DNA of 41,749 bases. Origin: a virus. The translations under genes and the position numbers were made by a program. Below the pieces are notes generated by a model. The model was not told the DNA's origin. It made no database searches and saw only the letters and a program-made list of their open reading frames with translations. Location of the stretch: the IMG/VR virus record IMGVR_UViG_3300038330_000020. The stretch is one strand, 5' to 3'. This document shows positions 35,918 to 41,749 of this stretch, piece by piece (the stretch's first letter is position 1; each line of letters starts with the position of its first letter).

Positions 35918-36160
35918 GTGAAGCCCGAACTAATAATGCTCACGCTGAGAGATATCAATGGTGATCCCTATGAAACCCAAGGCCGCATCGTTGGCACACG
36001 GATTAAGGGATTCGACCTGCCTAGCGGTGCTTGGTCAGCATACGGCAGCAGCGAGGGCTGTAAGCCAGCTAAGTTTATTCTGTGGGTACCGAAGTGGAAG
36101 CGCAAGGCGAGAGCGATCAGAGTGAGAGATGTTTTGAAGGGTCTACCTGATAATTTATGA
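35918..36160 (+). CDS. hypothetical protein
   Basis: 80-aa track ORF with a GTG start. Confidence 0.4.
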   Translation: MKPELIMLTLRDINGDPYETQGRIVGTRIKGFDLPSGAWSAYGSSEGCKPAKFILWVPKWKRKARAIRVRDVLKGLPDNL

Positions 36161-36260
36161 ACTTACTCAACAACTTGTGGAGGCGGCAGAGCATGAAGAT
36201 GACACCAAGGGAAAAAAGGATGTACGACGCGCTGGCGCGCTTGGCCGGGTAGTAGCAAAA

Positions 36261-36284
36261 GTTATGCACAGGGTTATGCACAGG
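36261..36284. promoter_or_regulatory. Two tandem DnaA-box matches (GTTATGCACAGG x2)
   Basis: Perfect 12-bp tandem duplication. Each unit contains TTATGCACA, which fits the DnaA-box consensus TTATNCACA. It lies 48 bp upstream of the initiator gene. Confidence 0.6.
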
Positions 36285-36331
36285 CGAAATGTAATGATTT
36301 CAGCAGACTGATTTTTGGAGTGTAAGTTAGA

Positions 36332-37027
36332 ATGCCACCAATCAAACGTTGGTTTCCTGTATCTCACGACATAAACAGCGATCCTGAGGTTGTGGCTTTG
36401 ACTGATGCTTATGGATTGACCGGCCTTAAAGTTTGGCTGGAATTGTTAAGCATCGGGGATCGTAACGAAGGGGTAATAGGAAGCGACTTAGACTCGATTG
36501 TCAGGTCACTCTCGATCAAGTGTAACTCGACTCAGAGTCGAGTCAGACTCGTGTGTGACTGGATCGTGACTCGACTGTGGGTCGATTGTGACTCGACTGT
36601 CAGACTACATAACTATGCAAAATATCACAGGACTAGGGAACCAATTAGTAACCCTCCTGACCTTCCGAACCTTCCTAACCATACCAGACCTATTAAACCC
36701 CCTAAATCCCCCAAGGGGGGACGACCGATCGAAGACCTAGTCTTTAGAAAATTTTGGGCTATCTACCCGAAGAAAGTCGGGAGGGATTCTGCTTACCGCG
36801 CATGGTGTAAAGAGGCACGACACTGTAGCGACGTGCAAGATGAGATATTCGCGTCGCTCGGGTGGCAGGTAGAACAGCGGCAATGGCGCGCCGATGGGGG
36901 GCGCTATATTCCACACCCGGCGACGTGGCTTAACCGCGGCGGGTGGAAAGACGAGCCGCAGCCCGCCGGGCCGGAACGGAACGAAGCCGACGAACAAATT
37001 CAGAGAATTTTAAAGAGGGGATTATGA
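36332..37027 (+). CDS. replication initiator / replisome organizer protein
   Basis: N-terminal W...D...DPEV..L....GL.GLKVWLELL pattern, C-terminal FRKFWAIYPKKVG...YIPHPATWLNRGGWKDE motif, and iterons inside the gene as in lambda O. Confidence 0.6.
   Translation: MPPIKRWFPVSHDINSDPEVVALTDAYGLTGLKVWLELLSIGDRNEGVIGSDLDSIVRSLSIKCNSTQSRVRLVCDWIVTRLWVDCDSTVRLHNYAKYHRTREPISNPPDLPNLPNHTRPIKPPKSPKGGRPIEDLVFRKFWAIYPKKVGRDSAYRAWCKEARHCSDVQDEIFASLGWQVEQRQWRADGGRYIPHPATWLNRGGWKDEPQPAGPERNEADEQIQRILKRGL
36488..36603. repeat. Iteron cluster (candidate origin of replication) inside the initiator gene
   Basis: GTGACTCGACTGT is exact at 36566-36578 and 36588-36600, 22 bp apart. The related GACTCGATTGTCAG is at 36491-36504. 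A perfect 9-bp-arm palindrome ACTCGACTC-A-GAGTCGAGT is at 36525-36543. Confidence 0.65.
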
Positions 37028-37362
37028 CGCGGGAATTTTTCAATAAGCAATATGCCGCGCTCGTGGCAGCGTACAGCATAGCGCGAAAAATGTCAGACGT
37101 ATCCCAGGAAATTTATTGGGAAATGCTCCAAGATATTTCAGACGATGATTTCGCCGATGGTGTTAAGGATTGTCTTGCGTCCTGTAAATTCTTCCCAACT
37201 ATTGCAGAATTGGGCGCGGCTTCATTGCCTGACATACCTGATAAGTTGGCGCCGCTTCCGGCATTAGATCACGAACGCCCGCGGCTTAACTGGCAGGAAC
37301 AGCTTAAACGCCAAAAGGAAAAAGCGCAGATCAGCCAGCGCAATCAAAAGCAGCTCAGATGA
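37024..37362 (+). CDS. possible helicase-loader-like protein (G39P-like)
   Basis: ATGA-coupled to the initiator. The pattern YWEMLQDISDDDFADGVKDCLASCKFFPTIAEL resembles G39P-type loaders. Confidence 0.35.
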   Translation: MTREFFNKQYAALVAAYSIARKMSDVSQEIYWEMLQDISDDDFADGVKDCLASCKFFPTIAELGAASLPDIPDKLAPLPALDHERPRLNWQEQLKRQKEKAQISQRNQKQLR

Positions 37363-37658
37363 CCGGCAATCCCAGAAAGGCAAAAGCGATGTTTGAGCCG
37401 ACAGAGGAACAGCGGAAAGCTTATAAGTGGACGAGAGCGCGTACCGACTTTCATCCGGTTTGCGTAAAGCTCGCCGATCTTGCCCTGCACGCCACGGCGG
37501 CGGCGCTGGAGGCTCAATATTGTTTAGATAGGCAGTCTTCATTTGAGACAATGGCAAAAGCAACCAAAGCCGACTGGATCCGCCTTGCCGACGAGAAACT
37601 ACGCGAGGCAAGGCAAGGTAAAAACATGAGAGGGAAAAACATCAACTCGGGAACCTGA
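37359..37658 (+). CDS. hypothetical protein
   Basis: 99-aa ORF, ATGA-coupled. Confidence 0.45.
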   Translation: MTGNPRKAKAMFEPTEEQRKAYKWTRARTDFHPVCVKLADLALHATAAALEAQYCLDRQSSFETMAKATKADWIRLADEKLREARQGKNMRGKNINSGT

Positions 37659-37669
37659 GAGGGGAAACC

Positions 37670-38536
37670 ATGAGAAAACTAACCGCAATCACAGGGTTTT
37701 TATTATTGATTTGGTCCAGTTGTCTAATCGCCGCGGAATACGAATTCACCACAATCCAGATGCCGGAGTCGCACAGCACCATGGCTTACGGCATCAACGA
37801 CATGGGTGATGTGGTAGGCAGCTTTACCGATTGCACATTTTGCCAAGCACAGGCGTTTTTATTCAGTGACGGCGAGTATTACGAGATAGGAGTGCAGGAC
37901 CAAGGCATGTCTAGGCTCACTCCATGGGGGATAAATAAACACGGTGTTATTGCTGGGACCCTCCTGAAGGATGGACAATTCTCAGCGTTTGTCATGGGCG
38001 ACACCGACACCACTGTCCTAGACGGCGCCGCGCGCGCCGATGGGCTCAACAACAACCCTGACACCGTGGTTGTAGGCTATCGGGCAACTGCAAAGTTTAA
38101 TCAAGCCGCATACTTATGGAGGGCGGGTAATTATGTTGCGCTGATCAATCCAGACTTGCCCGGCGTAATCGCCAGTGAGGCAACCAGCATCAACGACAGG
38201 GGGGATATTGTTGGGTTTTGGGCTACGGATGCAGGGGACGGGATAAACGTCAAGATTCAAGGCTTTATCATAAAATCAGGACAGTTGAGTTATCTAGATA
38301 TAATCCCCCTCGGGATCAATGCGAGCGGTCAAATCGTCGGGCAAAGCGGAGCTGGCTACGATGGGGCGATTCTCGAAAACGGCGTGACGACGGTCATCAA
38401 GGTGCCGGGAGCGGATTACACTCAGGTGCTCGGCCTTAATAATCGCGGCCATCTTGTAGGCTATTACACTAAAGCTGGTGTTACTTATGGGTTTATTGGC
38501 AAGGTGAAGCGGGCGGCAATGGTGGCGAAGCGATGA
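37670..38536 (+). CDS. secreted HAF-family extracellular repeat protein
   Basis: Signal peptide MRKLTAITGFLLLIWSSCLIA/AE. Six repeats of the G(I/L)N..G.(I/V)VG type (GINDMGDVVGSF, GINKHGVIAGT, SINDRGDIVGFW, GINASGQIVGQS, GLNNRGHLVGYY). Confidence 0.65.
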   Translation: MRKLTAITGFLLLIWSSCLIAAEYEFTTIQMPESHSTMAYGINDMGDVVGSFTDCTFCQAQAFLFSDGEYYEIGVQDQGMSRLTPWGINKHGVIAGTLLKDGQFSAFVMGDTDTTVLDGAARADGLNNNPDTVVVGYRATAKFNQAAYLWRAGNYVALINPDLPGVIASEATSINDRGDIVGFWATDAGDGINVKIQGFIIKSGQLSYLDIIPLGINASGQIVGQSGAGYDGAILENGVTTVIKVPGADYTQVLGLNNRGHLVGYYTKAGVTYGFIGKVKRAAMVAKR

Positions 38537-38787
38537 GCGAAACGCCGCGAACGAAGGACGAGGCGGAAGAAAAGGCGCTAGAGCTTTTGCCGTGCGAGAA
38601 GGTGACGCGGCTTTGTGACCCTGAGTTAGAGGAACTTTGCTATGGGTGTCAGCTTCGTCCAGCCGTAGCCGCGGCGCTCAGGGAAGCGCAGCAAGACGGA
38701 TACAAGCATGGCTGGACCGCAGGGAATGAGCACGAGGACGCGCTAGACGCCGAGATTGCTAAACTCAAGGCCAAGGCGGGCAAGTGA
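38533..38787 (+). CDS. hypothetical protein (84 aa), repeat-flanked cassette ORF
   Basis: Its first 7 residues (MSETPRT) duplicate those of the downstream VRR-NUC gene. The stop overlaps the VRR-NUC GTG (GTGA). Confidence 0.5.
   Translation: MSETPRTKDEAEEKALELLPCEKVTRLCDPELEELCYGCQLRPAVAAALREAQQDGYKHGWTAGNEHEDALDAEIAKLKAKAGK
38534..38555. repeat. 22-bp boundary direct repeat TGAGCGAAACGCCGCGAACGAA (partner 38785..38806)
   Basis: Exact 22-mer beginning at position 2 of two successive start codons (ATG at 38533, GTG at 38784). Confidence 0.9.
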
Positions 38788-39125
38788 GCGAAACGCCGCG
38801 AACGAACCTTTACGCCCAAATATCCGAAAAGGACTTCACCGCGCAGGTGATAGCGCTTGCCCGGTGGTACAAGTGGCGGGTGACTCATTTTCGGGCAGCG
38901 ATAAATCAACGCGGCAGGTGGCTTACACCGATCCAGGGTGATTCAGGCTTTCCAGACATATTCGCGTTACGCCACAATCGCGCCATAATCGCCGAACTCA
39001 AGGCGGCTAAGGGTAGAGTGACACCCGAGCAGGTAACGTGGCTCTCGATGGCAAAGGACGCGAACTTGGAAGTTTATATCTGGCGCCCGGCGGATATTGA
39101 CGAGATCGAGGGAATACTAAAGTAA
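38784..39125 (+). CDS. VRR-NUC domain nuclease
   Basis: GFPDIFALRHNRAIIAELKAAKGRVTPEQVTWL is the PD...ELK core of VRR-NUC. Confidence 0.8.
   Translation: MSETPRTNLYAQISEKDFTAQVIALARWYKWRVTHFRAAINQRGRWLTPIQGDSGFPDIFALRHNRAIIAELKAAKGRVTPEQVTWLSMAKDANLEVYIWRPADIDEIEGILK
38785..38806. repeat. 22-bp boundary direct repeat, second copy
   Basis: Exact identity to 38534-38555. Confidence 0.9.
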
Positions 39126-39394
39126 TGACCATCACCGTAGCCGGCCAAATCTTCAAGGCGTATTCATGCCACCGTTGCGCAGGGTTTCGGGACACGGATG
39201 CGGCAAGGCTGGAACAACATCAAGGCTGGCACGACGACCAGGACGCGAAATGTAAAGGGCTGGAAATCTACAGCAAGGATTACGAGGCCGTGCTTTGCAA
39301 AGTAAAGGGGTGCGATCGTTGGGCCGCGGCGCGGGCAATGTGCCAAATGCACTATCAGCGGGAGTATACACTACTTAGGAGAAATCGTAGTTGA
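39125..39394 (+). CDS. small Cys/His zinc-binding protein
   Basis: CHRC and the CKVKGCDRWAAARAMCQMHYQR motif, which is the C.V.GC.R.A.A...C..HY type. Confidence 0.45.
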   Translation: MTITVAGQIFKAYSCHRCAGFRDTDAARLEQHQGWHDDQDAKCKGLEIYSKDYEAVLCKVKGCDRWAAARAMCQMHYQREYTLLRRNRS

Positions 39395-39463
39395 CATAAA
39401 AAATTCCATCCCCTACTAATAGTGTTCGTGTCAGGTGTTGCTGTTTTCCCACTCTCAGGCAGG

Positions 39464-39500
39464 AACCCTCGTCAAAGCAATTTGGCGGGGGTTTTTGTTT
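39464..39500 (+). terminator. candidate rho-independent terminator after the early operon
   Basis: AACCCTCG (39464-39471) pairs with CGGGGGTT (39486-39493), including one G-U pair, and is followed by TTTTTGTTT. The loop is fairly large at 14 nt. Confidence 0.4.
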
Positions 39501-39665
39501 ATCTAGCCCATGGAAATAGTTGAGGTTATTACCTTTGAGTATACCCACGGTTTCGACTATTGGCGTTATTTGAGCAGGATTTTGATCTACTTGAAGCGAG
39601 ATCAGATTGATTTCGAGCTATGTGACGGAGAAGGCAACGCATAAGAACTACGAGAAACAACGAAC

Positions 39666-40022
39666 GTGCCGCAGTTTCAACCAGGAAATAAAGAACAGAC
39701 CAAGCGCAGATTATTCAAGGGCGGCAGACCTACCAAAGATATTGCATTCAGTGTTGAGCTTGAGCGGACCGCCTTTGTTGCCGCAGCATTAAGTAATGGC
39801 GAGGAAATCGGCAAGCAGTACCGCAAGCGAATATTTGAGAATGACGCGGTTTTAGTCGATGCCCGCAAATGGTTGACCGATAAGGACGATGGCCAAACGC
39901 AAAGACCCGTTGCTATCCAAGTTGTTGTCGAAGCCCCGAGCCAAAACGGAAATGGCAACGGGCAGGACGCTCCAGCTCCGGGCTCGTGGAACGGTGGGCC
40001 AATTCTTATTGGCGGTGACTAA
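39666..40022 (+). CDS. putative terminase small subunit
   Basis: 118 aa, directly upstream of the large terminase. Basic N-terminus FQPGNKEQTKRRLFKGGRPTKD. GTG start. Confidence 0.45.
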   Translation: MPQFQPGNKEQTKRRLFKGGRPTKDIAFSVELERTAFVAAALSNGEEIGKQYRKRIFENDAVLVDARKWLTDKDDGQTQRPVAIQVVVEAPSQNGNGNGQDAPAPGSWNGGPILIGGD

Positions 40023-41343
40023 TGGCAAGGCTAGAGAGATTTGCTGTTTCGGTGCGCGCGGCGATGGAAAAACCATCGGGGCTCTCATGGCGATGGTGGC
40101 TCACGCGCAGCAACACGCAGCGGCAGGCTATCCGCTCCCGGTGCCTTGGATTGGAGTCAGCGACACGTTCCAATCGCACAAGCTCAAGACTATCCGATCG
40201 ATTAATAACCCACTCTGGCAAGGATTGTGGAGAACATCAGAGCAAGGCCACATTGCGGAATTTTGTCTTGACGGCCAGACCCTTGTTAAGCTCGACTTGT
40301 TCGGAATCGAAGATCAAGGCGCCATGGATAGAGTCAGATTGGAAACATGCGGAGTCTGGTTTGAAGAAGCCGCACCGTCCGCGGTTATGGTTCAAAGTGC
40401 GGGCATATCTGAGTCAGCATGGGATTTGGCTTTAACATCTCAACGCGTGCCGACACATTGTAAGCCGGCGATGATAACCGAGAATTATCCTGAGGACGAT
40501 CATTGGACGTGGCGACGGTTTGTTACCAAGCCAGGGCCAGGCACAATGTATTTTAGAGTGCCGCCAGGAGAGCGGGCCAGCGCCGAGGATAGAGCAGAGT
40601 GGGAGAGGGCTCTAGCCCACGACCCGGCATTACTGGCGCGCTTGGTCCATGGTGAGCCGGCAGTCTTATCCCTCGGCGATCATGTCGCCACCGGATTCTC
40701 GACGCTTTACCACATCGCCAAGACCCCTATTAAGCCCGAGCCGGGTGTTGAGATCGGCATCGGCTTCGACGGCGGACACACGCCGACTGCGGTTATTGGC
40801 CAACAGGTGCGCAATGGAGTAAGGGTCTATGCGGCACTCACCCAAGATAACTCGGGGATGCGGCAACTACTGGAAGATCAGGTTTTACCTTGGCTTGCTC
40901 GTAATAGCCCTTGGGTTTTACGCAATCCTAGTGACTTGCTTGTCGGGTATGACCCTAGCCTTGACGTTGGCGAGCAAGCGGATATTGACAATAGCGCATT
41001 AAACGCCATCAACGAGGCGCTAGGCTATCCAAGCTGTGAACCGGGGCCGGTACGTTGGCCGAATCGCAAGGACGCGCTAATCCAGGCGCTCAGCCGCAAG
41101 GATGGGCTATTGATCGACCCGTCATGCGACCTGCTCATCAAGGCGCTGAATGGCCGCTGGTATTATCCTAAGTCGCACATTGGCGAGCTGCGCAGCGATA
41201 ACCCAAAGAAGCCTAATCATCCATGGGAGGACCTCGGCGACTCGCTGATTTACTTACTGTGCCGGTTCGGGATAGTGGGAGCGGCTATGTGGAGTGATAA
41301 CACGTTCGATGACGTTAAGATCTTAGCCAATTACAATCATTGA
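39889..41343 (+). CDS. terminase large subunit
   Basis: Walker A CCFGARGDGKT. The size and the position before the portal on the circular map fit. The start is uncertain (39889 or 39952) and overlaps the upstream ORF. Confidence 0.8.
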   Translation: MAKRKDPLLSKLLSKPRAKTEMATGRTLQLRARGTVGQFLLAVTNGKAREICCFGARGDGKTIGALMAMVAHAQQHAAAGYPLPVPWIGVSDTFQSHKLKTIRSINNPLWQGLWRTSEQGHIAEFCLDGQTLVKLDLFGIEDQGAMDRVRLETCGVWFEEAAPSAVMVQSAGISESAWDLALTSQRVPTHCKPAMITENYPEDDHWTWRRFVTKPGPGTMYFRVPPGERASAEDRAEWERALAHDPALLARLVHGEPAVLSLGDHVATGFSTLYHIAKTPIKPEPGVEIGIGFDGGHTPTAVIGQQVRNGVRVYAALTQDNSGMRQLLEDQVLPWLARNSPWVLRNPSDLLVGYDPSLDVGEQADIDNSALNAINEALGYPSCEPGPVRWPNRKDALIQALSRKDGLLIDPSCDLLIKALNGRWYYPKSHIGELRSDNPKKPNHPWEDLGDSLIYLLCRFGIVGAAMWSDNTFDDVKILANYNH

Positions 41344-41429
41344 TGGAAATTCTAGACGTTCTCAGAATTATCTTCTGGTGTTTGGTTGCGTTGTTGGCTC
41401 TAATTAAGACAATAGACGTTTTGAGGTAG
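41343..41429 (+). CDS. possible 28-aa single-TM peptide
   Basis: The ATG overlaps the terminase TGA. Product is MEILDVLRIIFWCLVALLALIKTIDVLR. Confidence 0.25.
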   Translation: MEILDVLRIIFWCLVALLALIKTIDVLR

Positions 41430-41431
41430 CA

Positions 41432-41602
41432 ATGGGCGCATTTTTCTCATCACCTAAAAAACCAAAGGTCATTCCGCCCCCGACAACGACGGATCAGGCG
41501 ATCACCGACGAGGCGGCGAACAAGCGCAGAGCCGCGGCTCTGCGCAAGGGCACCGCGGCAAACAGTGTTGCTAGTCGTGGGCTAGGGTACGTGAACGCAT
41601 GA
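41432..41602 (+). CDS. hypothetical small protein (56 aa), ends LGYVNA
   Basis: The pattern MGAFFSSPKKPKVIPPP...RRAAALRKG is common in small podovirus proteins. Below the track cutoff. Confidence 0.4.
   Translation: MGAFFSSPKKPKVIPPPTTTDQAITDEAANKRRAAALRKGTAANSVASRGLGYVNA
41581..41600. repeat. 20-bp boundary direct repeat, second copy (partner 291..310)
   Basis: Exact identity to 291-310. Confidence 0.9.
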
Positions 41603-41749
41603 GAACGTACCGGCTCAAGGGTGAAACCGGGCCTATTGGGGATTGTAAATTTGAGATAAGGGCGCTGAGTAATGACATCCGCGAACTTCAAAAAACTCGG
41701 CAAAAGGTGAAGCAAGAGCTGAGATCATTACAAGCGAAGAAAAAGAAGA
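41599..41749 (+). CDS. hypothetical coiled-coil protein (51 aa) spanning the contig junction; completed by bases 128-132 of the left repeat copy
   Basis: The ATG at 41599 overlaps the upstream TGA. The reading frame runs off the window and ends at the TGA at 130-132 in the identical left copy. Confidence 0.4.
   Translation, partial: MRTYRLKGETGPIGDCKFEIRALSNDIRELQKTRQKVKQELRSLQAKKKK
41623..41749. repeat. Terminal direct repeat, right copy (identical to 1..127)
   Basis: Exact 127-bp identity with the first 127 bases. Confidence 0.95.

Follow-up and report, generated by a model that had tools for sequence, protein, structure and literature searches.

Exact repeats at stop–start overlaps bracket small genes in a podovirus genome, probably as scars of illegitimate recombination

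The stretch of DNA analyzed here, the IMG/VR record IMGVR_UViG_3300038330_000020 (41,749 nucleotides in full, hereafter the window), is a podovirus genome. It is a circular assembly of 41,622 bp in which bases 1–127 are identical to bases 41623–41749 (127-nt ends), and it encodes a T7-type portal or head-tail connector (PF12236, E = 9e-78), a podovirus tail protein (phrog_376), a PD-(D/E)XK exonuclease, a DnaD-like replication initiator, a repressor-like helix-turn-helix protein and a VRR-NUC nuclease (PF08774, E = 5.7e-5; phrog_93, E = 9.5e-11). Our subject is a 22-bp exact repeat that brackets an 84-residue open reading frame (ORF84) directly in front of the VRR-NUC gene, together with the similar arrangements found in front of the portal gene and in related phages.

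The 22-mer TGAGCGAAACGCCGCGAACGAA, which we call R2, occurs exactly twice in the genome, at 38534–38555 directly after the ATG of ORF84 (38533–38787) and at 38785–38806 directly after the G of the GTG start of the VRR-NUC gene (38784–39125); these features, like the other cassette repeats and ORFs of the window, lie on the plus strand. No further match is found in the window genome when up to three mismatches are allowed, and 0 of 100 shuffled sequences yield even one match. The original prediction, made from the sequence alone, placed the copies directly after an ATG and a GTG start, and these start codons are indeed present at 38533 and 38784. It is also correct that the TGA stop of ORF84, which is contained in the second copy of R2, overlaps the VRR-NUC start in the sequence GTGA. 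The further statement that both proteins begin with MSETPRT holds literally for ORF84, whereas the nuclease is written VSETPRT from its GTG. SETPRT is encoded by an 18-nt in-frame unit, GCGAAACGCCGCGAACGA, at 38537–38554 within the first copy.

A genome-wide scan for exact repeats ranks the 22-nt pair (38534/38785) second, after a 30-nt pair (440/676) that had also been predicted and ahead of a 20-nt pair (41581/291); the next longest repeats have 17, 16, 16 and 16 nt. Each of the three longest encloses one or more small ORFs at a boundary between genes. Among 200 genomes simulated with a Markov model, none had an exact direct repeat of more than 19 nt, whatever the distance between the copies, or of more than 16 nt with the copies within 400 bp. 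A profusion of repeats of this length scattered at random, which would have spoken against a special arrangement, is thus not what the genome contains, since the top three are gene-boundary brackets and no simulated genome passes 19 nt. The repeats are short, which is the only point in favor of chance similarity or faulty assembly. However, the shuffled and simulated sequences speak against chance, the repeats are shorter than the assembly k-mers, and the phage sequence is 100% identical across independent JGI and Logan assemblies from several samples and runs, which rules out an assembly artefact. An explanation by chance or artefact is already refuted, and we give it practically no probability.

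The 30-nt repeat (R1) has the same architecture as R2, as originally claimed. Its first copy (440–469) runs from the ATG of ORF79 (440–679), whose stop lies inside ATGA, its second copy (676–705) is the 5′ end of the portal gene (676–2331), and the first 10 codons of ORF79 are those of the portal, both proteins starting MTRPAEIIKF. The 20-nt repeat (R3) belongs to a third cassette, which is anchored at stop codons instead: its copies, at 41581–41600 and 291–310, lie 332 bp apart on the circle, and the 332-bp unit holds ORF51 and ORF55 and spans the circular junction. The repeat architecture is non-random and recurrent, occurring three times in the window genome and again in three related contigs.

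For the portal slot an empty counterpart exists. In the IMG/VR contig L001 (related metagenome loci are denoted by L and a number), whose portal is 78% identical, a 58-residue homologue of the small conserved gene ORF56 (43% identity, E = 2e-6) directly precedes the portal and is joined to it by a TAATG overlap, through ..GGCTAATGACCCGACCCGCC.., and none of the four ORFs that stand between ORF56 (41432–41602) and the portal in the window (ORF51, ORF55, ORF43 and ORF79) is present. The window carries 1,075 extra bases at this point, made up of insert A (41601–290), ORF43 and ORF79; the slot, empty in L001 and filled in the window, is therefore polymorphic, as the original prediction would have it. 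Both halves of the ancestral junction persist, TAATGAC now leading into ORF43 (310–316) and ATGACCCGACC into both ORF79 and the portal, which identifies R1 as the native 5′ end of the portal gene (the L001 portal begins MTRPAEICKL) and R3 as the native 3′ end of ORF56. Specifically, the first copy of R3 ends ORF56 (..GLGYVNA*), and the second ends ORF55 (145–312; ..KLGYVNA*), whose C-terminal six residues are copied from ORF56, and is followed by the ancestral TAATG junction. Insert A, with ORF51 (41599–41749, continuing to 132 over the circular junction) as its first gene and ORF55 as its second, has 42.9% GC versus 54.5% for the genome. ORF43 (312–443), absent from L001, reuses the ancestral TAATGAC junction for its start and ends GGCGAAGCG|ATGA, and ORF79 is an ORFan, with no homologue but itself among 5.8 billion proteins. 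The newcomer genes at the portal slot are fused to the native ends represented by R1 and R3.

ORF84 is a real gene: between it and its homologue in L007 (86% identical) there are 17 synonymous and 6 non-synonymous codon differences. It belongs to a family of small Cys4 plus coiled-coil proteins with 19 representatives among 1.84 billion sequences, in which an N-terminal module (LLPC..TRLC...EE.C.GC..RPAVAAALRE) is followed by variable coiled coils. It has no match in Pfam, PHROG or NCBIfam, a search of IMG/VR with it returned none either, and its AlphaFold2 model is of low confidence (predicted local distance difference test score, 52). SETPRT is found in 0 of the 19 homologues, the closest of which begin MKDEAE, and in nearly every alignment residue 8–9 of ORF84 is matched to residue 2–5 or later of the homologue. 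Because no homologue has SETPRT and the alignments start after it, the MSETPRT prefix is foreign to ORF84.

In L007 the order is ORF99 homologue, ATGA, ORF84 homologue, GTGA, VRR-NUC, with no repeat, and in L012 a long member of the ORF84 family also lies directly before VRR-NUC. The idea that ORF84 was inserted in front of the nuclease gene thus survives only in part: the prefix is foreign, but the order of the two genes pre-exists in L007 and L012, and for that reason the novelty of the window may be the 18-nt unit itself. When the window is aligned with L007, the identical 18 nt are extra directly after [A/G]TGA in both genes, and the VRR-NUC homologues P0018 (VNLYAQISE) and that of L007 (VNQYAQISE) correspond to the window protein minus SETPRT; among the VRR-NUC relatives, only the L012 start VSKAAARTNHY resembles a diverged prefix. 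What sets the window apart is that both start codons are followed by one and the same 18-nt in-frame unit. At the nucleotide level the ORF99 tail is 85% and ORF84 86% identical to L007, and the drop from 86% to 69% in VRR-NUC places a mosaic breakpoint at or near the GTGA/R2 junction.

To look for the same architecture elsewhere, we scanned 80 metagenome loci, collected by VRR-NUC homology, for exact repeats of at least 16 nt. L025 has a 20-nt repeat after two ATGA starts, where ORF98 and ORF110 both begin MILSKPGQKL, a prefix native to the downstream family. In L082 a 23-nt repeat spanning ..ETGEL*/GTGATTAT brackets a 54-residue ORF, and in L026 a 24-nt repeat at two C termini (..AALALAEGK[R/K]*) brackets ORF54, VRR-NUC and a coiled-coil ORF. 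The duplications are thus 20, 23 and 24 nt long in the relatives, compared with 30, 22, 20, 8 and 5 nt in the window. The L082 junction also supplies a second series of empty and filled sites: ...GEL*/GTGA is empty in L044 (..GGCGAACT|GTGATCGTC) and L085, and filled with three different cargos in L082 (the 23-nt duplication), L066 (80 residues, ACT|ATGA ... ATC|GTGA) and L068 (166 residues, ACT|ATGA ... CGC|GTGA), every one of them connected once more through [A/G]TGA. Polymorphism of such slots among relatives is seen here too, and because of this series we regard [A/G]TGA overlaps as recurrent cassette slots in the phage group. Long duplications go with a subset of the cassette events.

Sequence from a neighboring junction can also travel with a cargo, and L008 offers a direct example: in this contig, and in L009, the ORF84-family gene stands in an unrelated setting of membrane proteins and has brought along 22 nt from the end of ORF99 (..LREVKR*). 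In L008 (1212–2439) this gene, P0002, lies between a 185-residue ORF weakly similar to PMT_2 (glycosyltransferase) and a 133-residue membrane ORF, with ATGA overlaps on both sides, and may be a cassette that splits a membrane-protein gene. In the L025 cassette (488–718), one of the two cargo ORFs resembles the Lar protein of restriction alleviation at a level below the cut-off (PF14354, E = 0.007), a weak match hinting that cassette cargos may be anti-defense genes. A distant VRR-NUC locus, L056, contains a 36-nt exact repeat of promoter-like content (TTTTGCAAATGTGTATAATTGCAAATATGAACACAA) at 225–260 and 558–593, 333 bp apart, which is probably a duplicated regulatory region.

The original prediction further pointed to the 9 nt upstream of the first start codon, identical at the portal and VRR-NUC cassettes, as a hint of a common insertion, recombination or regulatory site. 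The identity is real: GGCGAAGCG at 38524–38532, which forms the last codons of the upstream gene (..AKR*), is the same as at 431–439, and the 13-mer GGCGAAGCGATGA occurs in the genome only at 431–443 and 38524–38536. However, AGCGATGA, which encodes ..(K)R* and is overlapped by ATG, is a common junction idiom. In 492 kb of the phage group it is found 38 times on the plus strand and 12 times on the minus strand, for approximately 7.5 expected per strand, and the related GGTGAAGCGATGA precedes the ORF84 homologues of L007, L008 and L009. Given how frequent AGCGATGA is at the junctions of the group, the 9-nt identity is less surprising, and it fits better with a junction dialect (...KR* overlapping ATGA) than with a dedicated insertion site. 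The junction sequence was possibly inherited with the ORF84 module, and at 38524–38532 it is the probable Shine-Dalgarno sequence plus spacer for ORF84.

Nor was any dedicated recombinase site, promoter, terminator or RNA structure seen that would mark a common site. The promoter/terminator scan of 36000–41749 gave nothing at the repeats, with counts at shuffle level; folding of four repeat regions gave no stable hairpin or signal (z-scores of 0.20 and 0.71 versus shuffles); no Rfam family was found anywhere in the window; and the whole-window inverted-repeat scan found no terminal inverted repeats at 38556/38784, 470/675 or 41601/290. These results bear on the possibility that a dedicated mobile element, i.e. 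a transposon, a miniature inverted-repeat transposable element, an integron cassette or a homing-endonuclease cassette, inserted ORF84 and thereby made a target-site duplication. The flanking direct repeats do superficially look like such duplications, and both VRR-NUC and an HNH-like zinc-ribbon ORF (39125–39394) adjoin. On the other hand, the duplication length differs in every event (5, 8, 20, 22, 23, 24 and 30 nt), terminal inverted repeats and attC-like hairpins are missing, the cargo ORFs of 43–84 residues have no transposase, integrase or nuclease domain, and the joints always fall at start–stop overlaps with no sequence-defined target. The domain searches found no transposase domain in the cargo or neighboring ORFs scanned, which cover part of the genome's ORFs, no integron-type recombinase among the selected ORFs scanned, and no domain match (HNH, GIY-YIG, LAGLIDADG or VSR-like) for ORF84, ORF79, ORF55 or ORF43. 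This explanation is largely refuted, and we consider it very improbable.

A more likely explanation, and one that we hold with moderate confidence, is that the 22-bp repeat is a junction duplication, a recombination scar left by microhomology-guided illegitimate recombination at a coupled stop–start overlap. In the phage and its relatives, [A/G]TGA or TAATG overlaps link the early and packaging genes one to the next and leave no room between them. Small accessory genes would be gained, lost and swapped exactly at these overlaps, through illegitimate recombination guided by microhomology (template switching or break-and-join) between related co-infecting phages, and selection would keep those products in which every gene is still translated or translationally coupled. 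If the two joints of such an event are offset by 5–30 nt, the first codons of the resident gene, or the last codons of the upstream gene, would end up on both sides of the newcomer. Where donor-like sequence is available, the microhomology amounts to 3–9 nt (left GCGAaCGAA vs GCGAtGAA, right TGA). Translation of ORF84 would then start from a ribosome-binding region that lies within the final codons of the gene before it, and VRR-NUC would be translated through re-initiation at GTGA. The perfect identity of the copies points to recent events, and because perfect 22-bp homology flanks it, the 251-bp unit is predicted to be deletable or transferable by short-homology recombination. The data show the repeats and their significance, a prefix foreign to the ORF84 family and missing from close VRR-NUC relatives, the polymorphism of the slots and the recurrence in other phages; we infer the mechanism of recombination, the direction of the events, the translational coupling and the instability.

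At the VRR-NUC locus, two routes could have produced the present arrangement. In the first, the 18-nt unit would have been copied from start to start via TGA...GAA microhomology in an ancestral ORF84–VRR-NUC pair; in the second, an ORF84 body from an L007-like phage would have been joined into the 5′ end of a VRR-NUC gene that already bore SETPRT, producing a target duplication of 22 nt. We slightly favor the first, because the ORF84–VRR-NUC order exists in L007 and L012, without making a confident choice. Insertion with target duplication, as in the second route, also operates, as the other cassettes of the window, L025 and L082 show.

The 18-nt unit is not confined to this locus. We searched the window and the related loci (approximately 0.5 Mb) for the R2 core (18 nt, at most three mismatches) and found it at the 5′ end of the ORF54 family in L018, L020, L026/L095 and L131, which are orthologous to one another, and at the 5′ end of an unrelated 117-residue gene in L093/L094. 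L012 has two tandem 18-nt units (468–510, NETPRTNETPRT) at the 3′ end of its ORF84-family gene, 13 nt before the VRR-NUC GTG, and the N terminus of its nuclease, VSKAAARTN, resembles a third, degenerate copy. In L019 a copy follows a stop codon, in L112/L029 two copies in the other frame (RNAANE, RNDANE) lie at gene 3′ ends, and L021 differs from L020 by the unit as a clean indel of 21 nt just in front of an ATG. The window genome itself holds just two units, both downstream of a start and with no AGGAG inside, and a search for a remnant of an ORF54-family body found none in it. In IMG/VR the exact 18-mer has no match and degenerate patterns gave only few loci; a 20-mer searched in a genome collection gave 15 matches, all in GC-rich bacterial or archaeal contigs and off real gene starts, which we attribute to chance.

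Several of these results weigh against the unit being a passive scar of illegitimate recombination. The R2 core occurs in about 10 independent contexts where about 0.35 would be expected, always on the coding strand, and it does so in two reading frames and once as the clean non-coding indel. Random illegitimate recombination would also seldom give two identical 18-nt insertions at equivalent positions of adjacent genes. No single-strand annealing protein was recognized beside the exonuclease, leaving the PD-(D/E)XK exonuclease and VRR-NUC; no donors were found for ORF79, ORF43, ORF51 and ORF55; no relative was found in which the gene upstream of ORF84 is joined straight to VRR-NUC, i.e. with an empty junction; and no variant lacking the 251-bp unit was seen, all contigs of the phage being 100% identical. 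Passive scars explain the dispersal of R2 only if junction fragments hitch-hike with the cargo. Such hitch-hiking with moving cargo, as in L008, can explain the dispersal.

Alternatively, the 18–21-nt unit could be a functional, start-associated element, such as a binding site for a phage or host factor in translation initiation or transcription; ORF84 and VRR-NUC would then be controlled together, and the bracket would be incidental. Besides the excess of contexts over expectation, this would account for the position of the copies on the gene strand, no more than about 30 nt away from a start or stop, in two frames as well as in non-coding DNA; for the 17–18 of 18 identities of the unit between phages whose flanking genes are just 65–70% identical; and for the clean indel in L021 versus L020. 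A precedent is provided by the start-associated sequences (SAS) and extended SAS (ESAS) of cluster K mycobacteriophages, which have 13 bp with a Shine-Dalgarno core, lie 3–7 bp upstream of the translation starts of non-structural genes and occur many times in each genome (Pope et al., 2011, PMC3203893). Like them, the R2 unit is short and asymmetric, keeps one orientation, is tied to starts and precedes unrelated gene families in related phages. Unlike them, it is 18–21 nt long, has no Shine-Dalgarno core, often lies inside the coding sequence after the start and has two copies only in the complete window genome. Relative to the start its position varies between about –45 and +5 nt, and there are copies after stops or at gene 3′ ends. 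It shows no inverted symmetry, RNA structure signal (z-scores 0.2 and 0.7) or Rfam match, several of its occurrences are one orthologous 5′ end, that of the ORF54 family (L018, L020, L026 and L131), and the repeats at the portal and ORF56 are native gene ends rather than dispersed motifs. Iterons, nut/boxB-like sites, promoters of phage RNA polymerases and Chi-like sites were rejected as candidates on account of copy number, length and the lack of symmetry or a hairpin, and no phage RNA polymerase was found among the large ORFs scanned. We regard a regulatory function as the origin of the pattern as unlikely.

A further possibility is that the junction repeats, including the dispersed R2 unit, act as portable homology handles of an integrase-free cassette system. 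Through short-homology recombination carried out by enzymes of the phage, repeats of 20–30 bp would excise an ORF as a circle that carries one copy, much like the mini-circles of the PeSL elements of T4-type phages, and re-integration at the identical 5′ end of the same gene elsewhere would regenerate the bracket. Genes would thus leave as circles and re-enter related phages at the 5′ or 3′ ends of conserved genes, with the coupling of translation at [A/G]TGA kept intact on each entry and the handles spreading along with their cargo; if true, this would explain the strand-specific, start-associated dispersal of the unit across the soil podovirus clade. Repeat lengths do cluster at 20–30 nt in four phages, the window copies are perfectly identical, and the phage encodes the PD-(D/E)XK exonuclease and a VRR-NUC, which is a resolvase-like nuclease. 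In addition, the gene order of L026 (100–1400) is a circular permutation of that of L020 (290–1730), with the coiled-coil gene before ORF54 and VRR-NUC in L020 but after them in L026 and the 24-nt repeat marking the joints, as expected from excision and re-entry of a circle or from tandem duplication. Two contigs of the phage (L127 and L128, from the JGI and Logan assemblies) stop at exactly 38800, inside the second copy of R2, and one from another sample (L124) starts at 41604, 3 nt past the first copy of R3; these ends hint at assembly-graph branches and may reflect variants at the cassettes. However, neither circles, deletion variants nor alternative junctions were observed, every contig of the phage from other samples carrying the cassettes with no empty sites, an annealing protein was not recognized, and ORF79, an ORFan, has turned up nowhere else. 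The duplications at further cassettes of these slots (L066, L068, ORF43 and the gene upstream of ORF84) measure only 3–8 nt, which shows that long handles are not required. We think a system of this kind quite improbable.

The comparison with PeSL can be made explicit. These elements combine a sigma-70 promoter and a terminator stem-loop in intergenic DNA of T4-type phages, and mini-circles can be set free when neighboring copies recombine (Arbiol et al., 2010, PMC2839356; Comeau et al., 2014, PMC4122927). Common to both are short conserved repeats 5′ of small non-essential ORFs, and close relatives that differ by insertion, deletion or replacement between the copies, as is found here for L001 versus the window and for L044 and L085 versus L082, L066 and L068. 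In contrast to PeSL, the repeats of the window consist of coding DNA together with a start or stop codon, no pair occurs at more than one junction, and no promoter, terminator or hairpin accompanies them.

Upstream of ORF84 lies a gene for a secreted 288-residue HAF-repeat protein (37670–38536; TIGR02913, E = 9e-13, with a signal peptide and HAF repeats), a bacterial-type secreted repeat protein in the early region of a phage, with a ribosome-binding site of its own. It is missing between the ORF99 and ORF84 homologues of L007 and is possibly flanked by the 8-nt sequence GGCAAGGT (37612, 38498); an origin of this insert by duplication of the ORF99 tail is weakly supported, the 8-mer occurring four times in the genome. 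The zinc-ribbon ORF directly after VRR-NUC (39125–39394, TAATG overlap) encodes 89 residues rich in cysteine and weakly matches the zinc ribbon near the N terminus of HNH endonucleases (phrog_5351, E = 1.5e-4); at the same place, L112 and L029 have a full HNH-like ORF of 141 residues. Within ORF56, between the terminase and portal genes, a perfect 22-nt palindrome, GCGCAGAGCCGCGGCTCTGCGC (41524–41545), is the longest inverted repeat of the genome. Among GenBank phages there is no DNA match to 37670–39400 and portal matches reach only about 28% identity, from which we conclude that the phage has no cultured relatives; the clade apparently consists of uncultivated soil podoviruses.

The joints at gene boundaries that make phage genomes mosaic are attributed to illegitimate recombination followed by selection (Hendrix and colleagues; compare the boundary sequences of lambdoid phages), and genes added in this way, the classic morons, are intergenic and have their own promoter and terminator. 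The present cassettes share the position of the joints at gene boundaries, genes that are present in one phage without counterpart in a relative (as at the portal slot) and, for insert A, a deviating GC content. They differ from morons in that the cargos have neither promoter nor terminator, are spliced into [A/G]TGA overlaps, and owe their start, the first 7–10 codons or the last 6 to the resident gene. We know of no description, as a class, of long exact junction duplications that recur three times within a single genome. Microhomology-mediated template switching is mainly described in eukaryotic and bacterial chromosomes, as fork stalling and template switching (FoSTeS) or microhomology-mediated break-induced replication (MMBIR). 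A foreign insertion, a flanking duplication of variable length and 2–5 nt of microhomology at the joints are what the cassettes have in common with it, and a mechanism of this type is here read from the joint sequences. With transposon target-site duplications and integron cassettes the cassettes share a promoter-less single-ORF cargo, direct repeats and expression from upstream signals, but no transposase or integrase was seen, terminal inverted repeats and attC are missing, and the duplication length varies. Because terminal inverted repeats, attC, promoter or terminator and a cargo recombinase are all lacking and the lengths range from 5 to 30 nt, transposons, integron cassettes, PeSL and classic morons can all be excluded, and the finding counts as a variant of the mosaicism already known in phages, not as a new type of mobile element.

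Its interest lies in the state of the joints. In phages, mosaic joints are usually erased by time, whereas the window and a few of its relatives keep fresh ones, in the form of perfect duplications of 20–30 bp, with matching empty and filled sites. These show how an operon without gaps between its genes can take up another gene: the newcomer would borrow the ribosome-binding site and first codons of the resident, or the last codons and stop of its neighbor, and the resident gene would be re-coupled through a regenerated [A/G]TGA overlap. The same picture predicts that the cargos are unstable and deletable between the repeats. For annotation it calls for caution, as identical N termini on adjacent phage genes can be recombination scars and not signs of paralogy, and the dispersed 18-nt unit could be a regulatory or a recombination signal of this group of phages.

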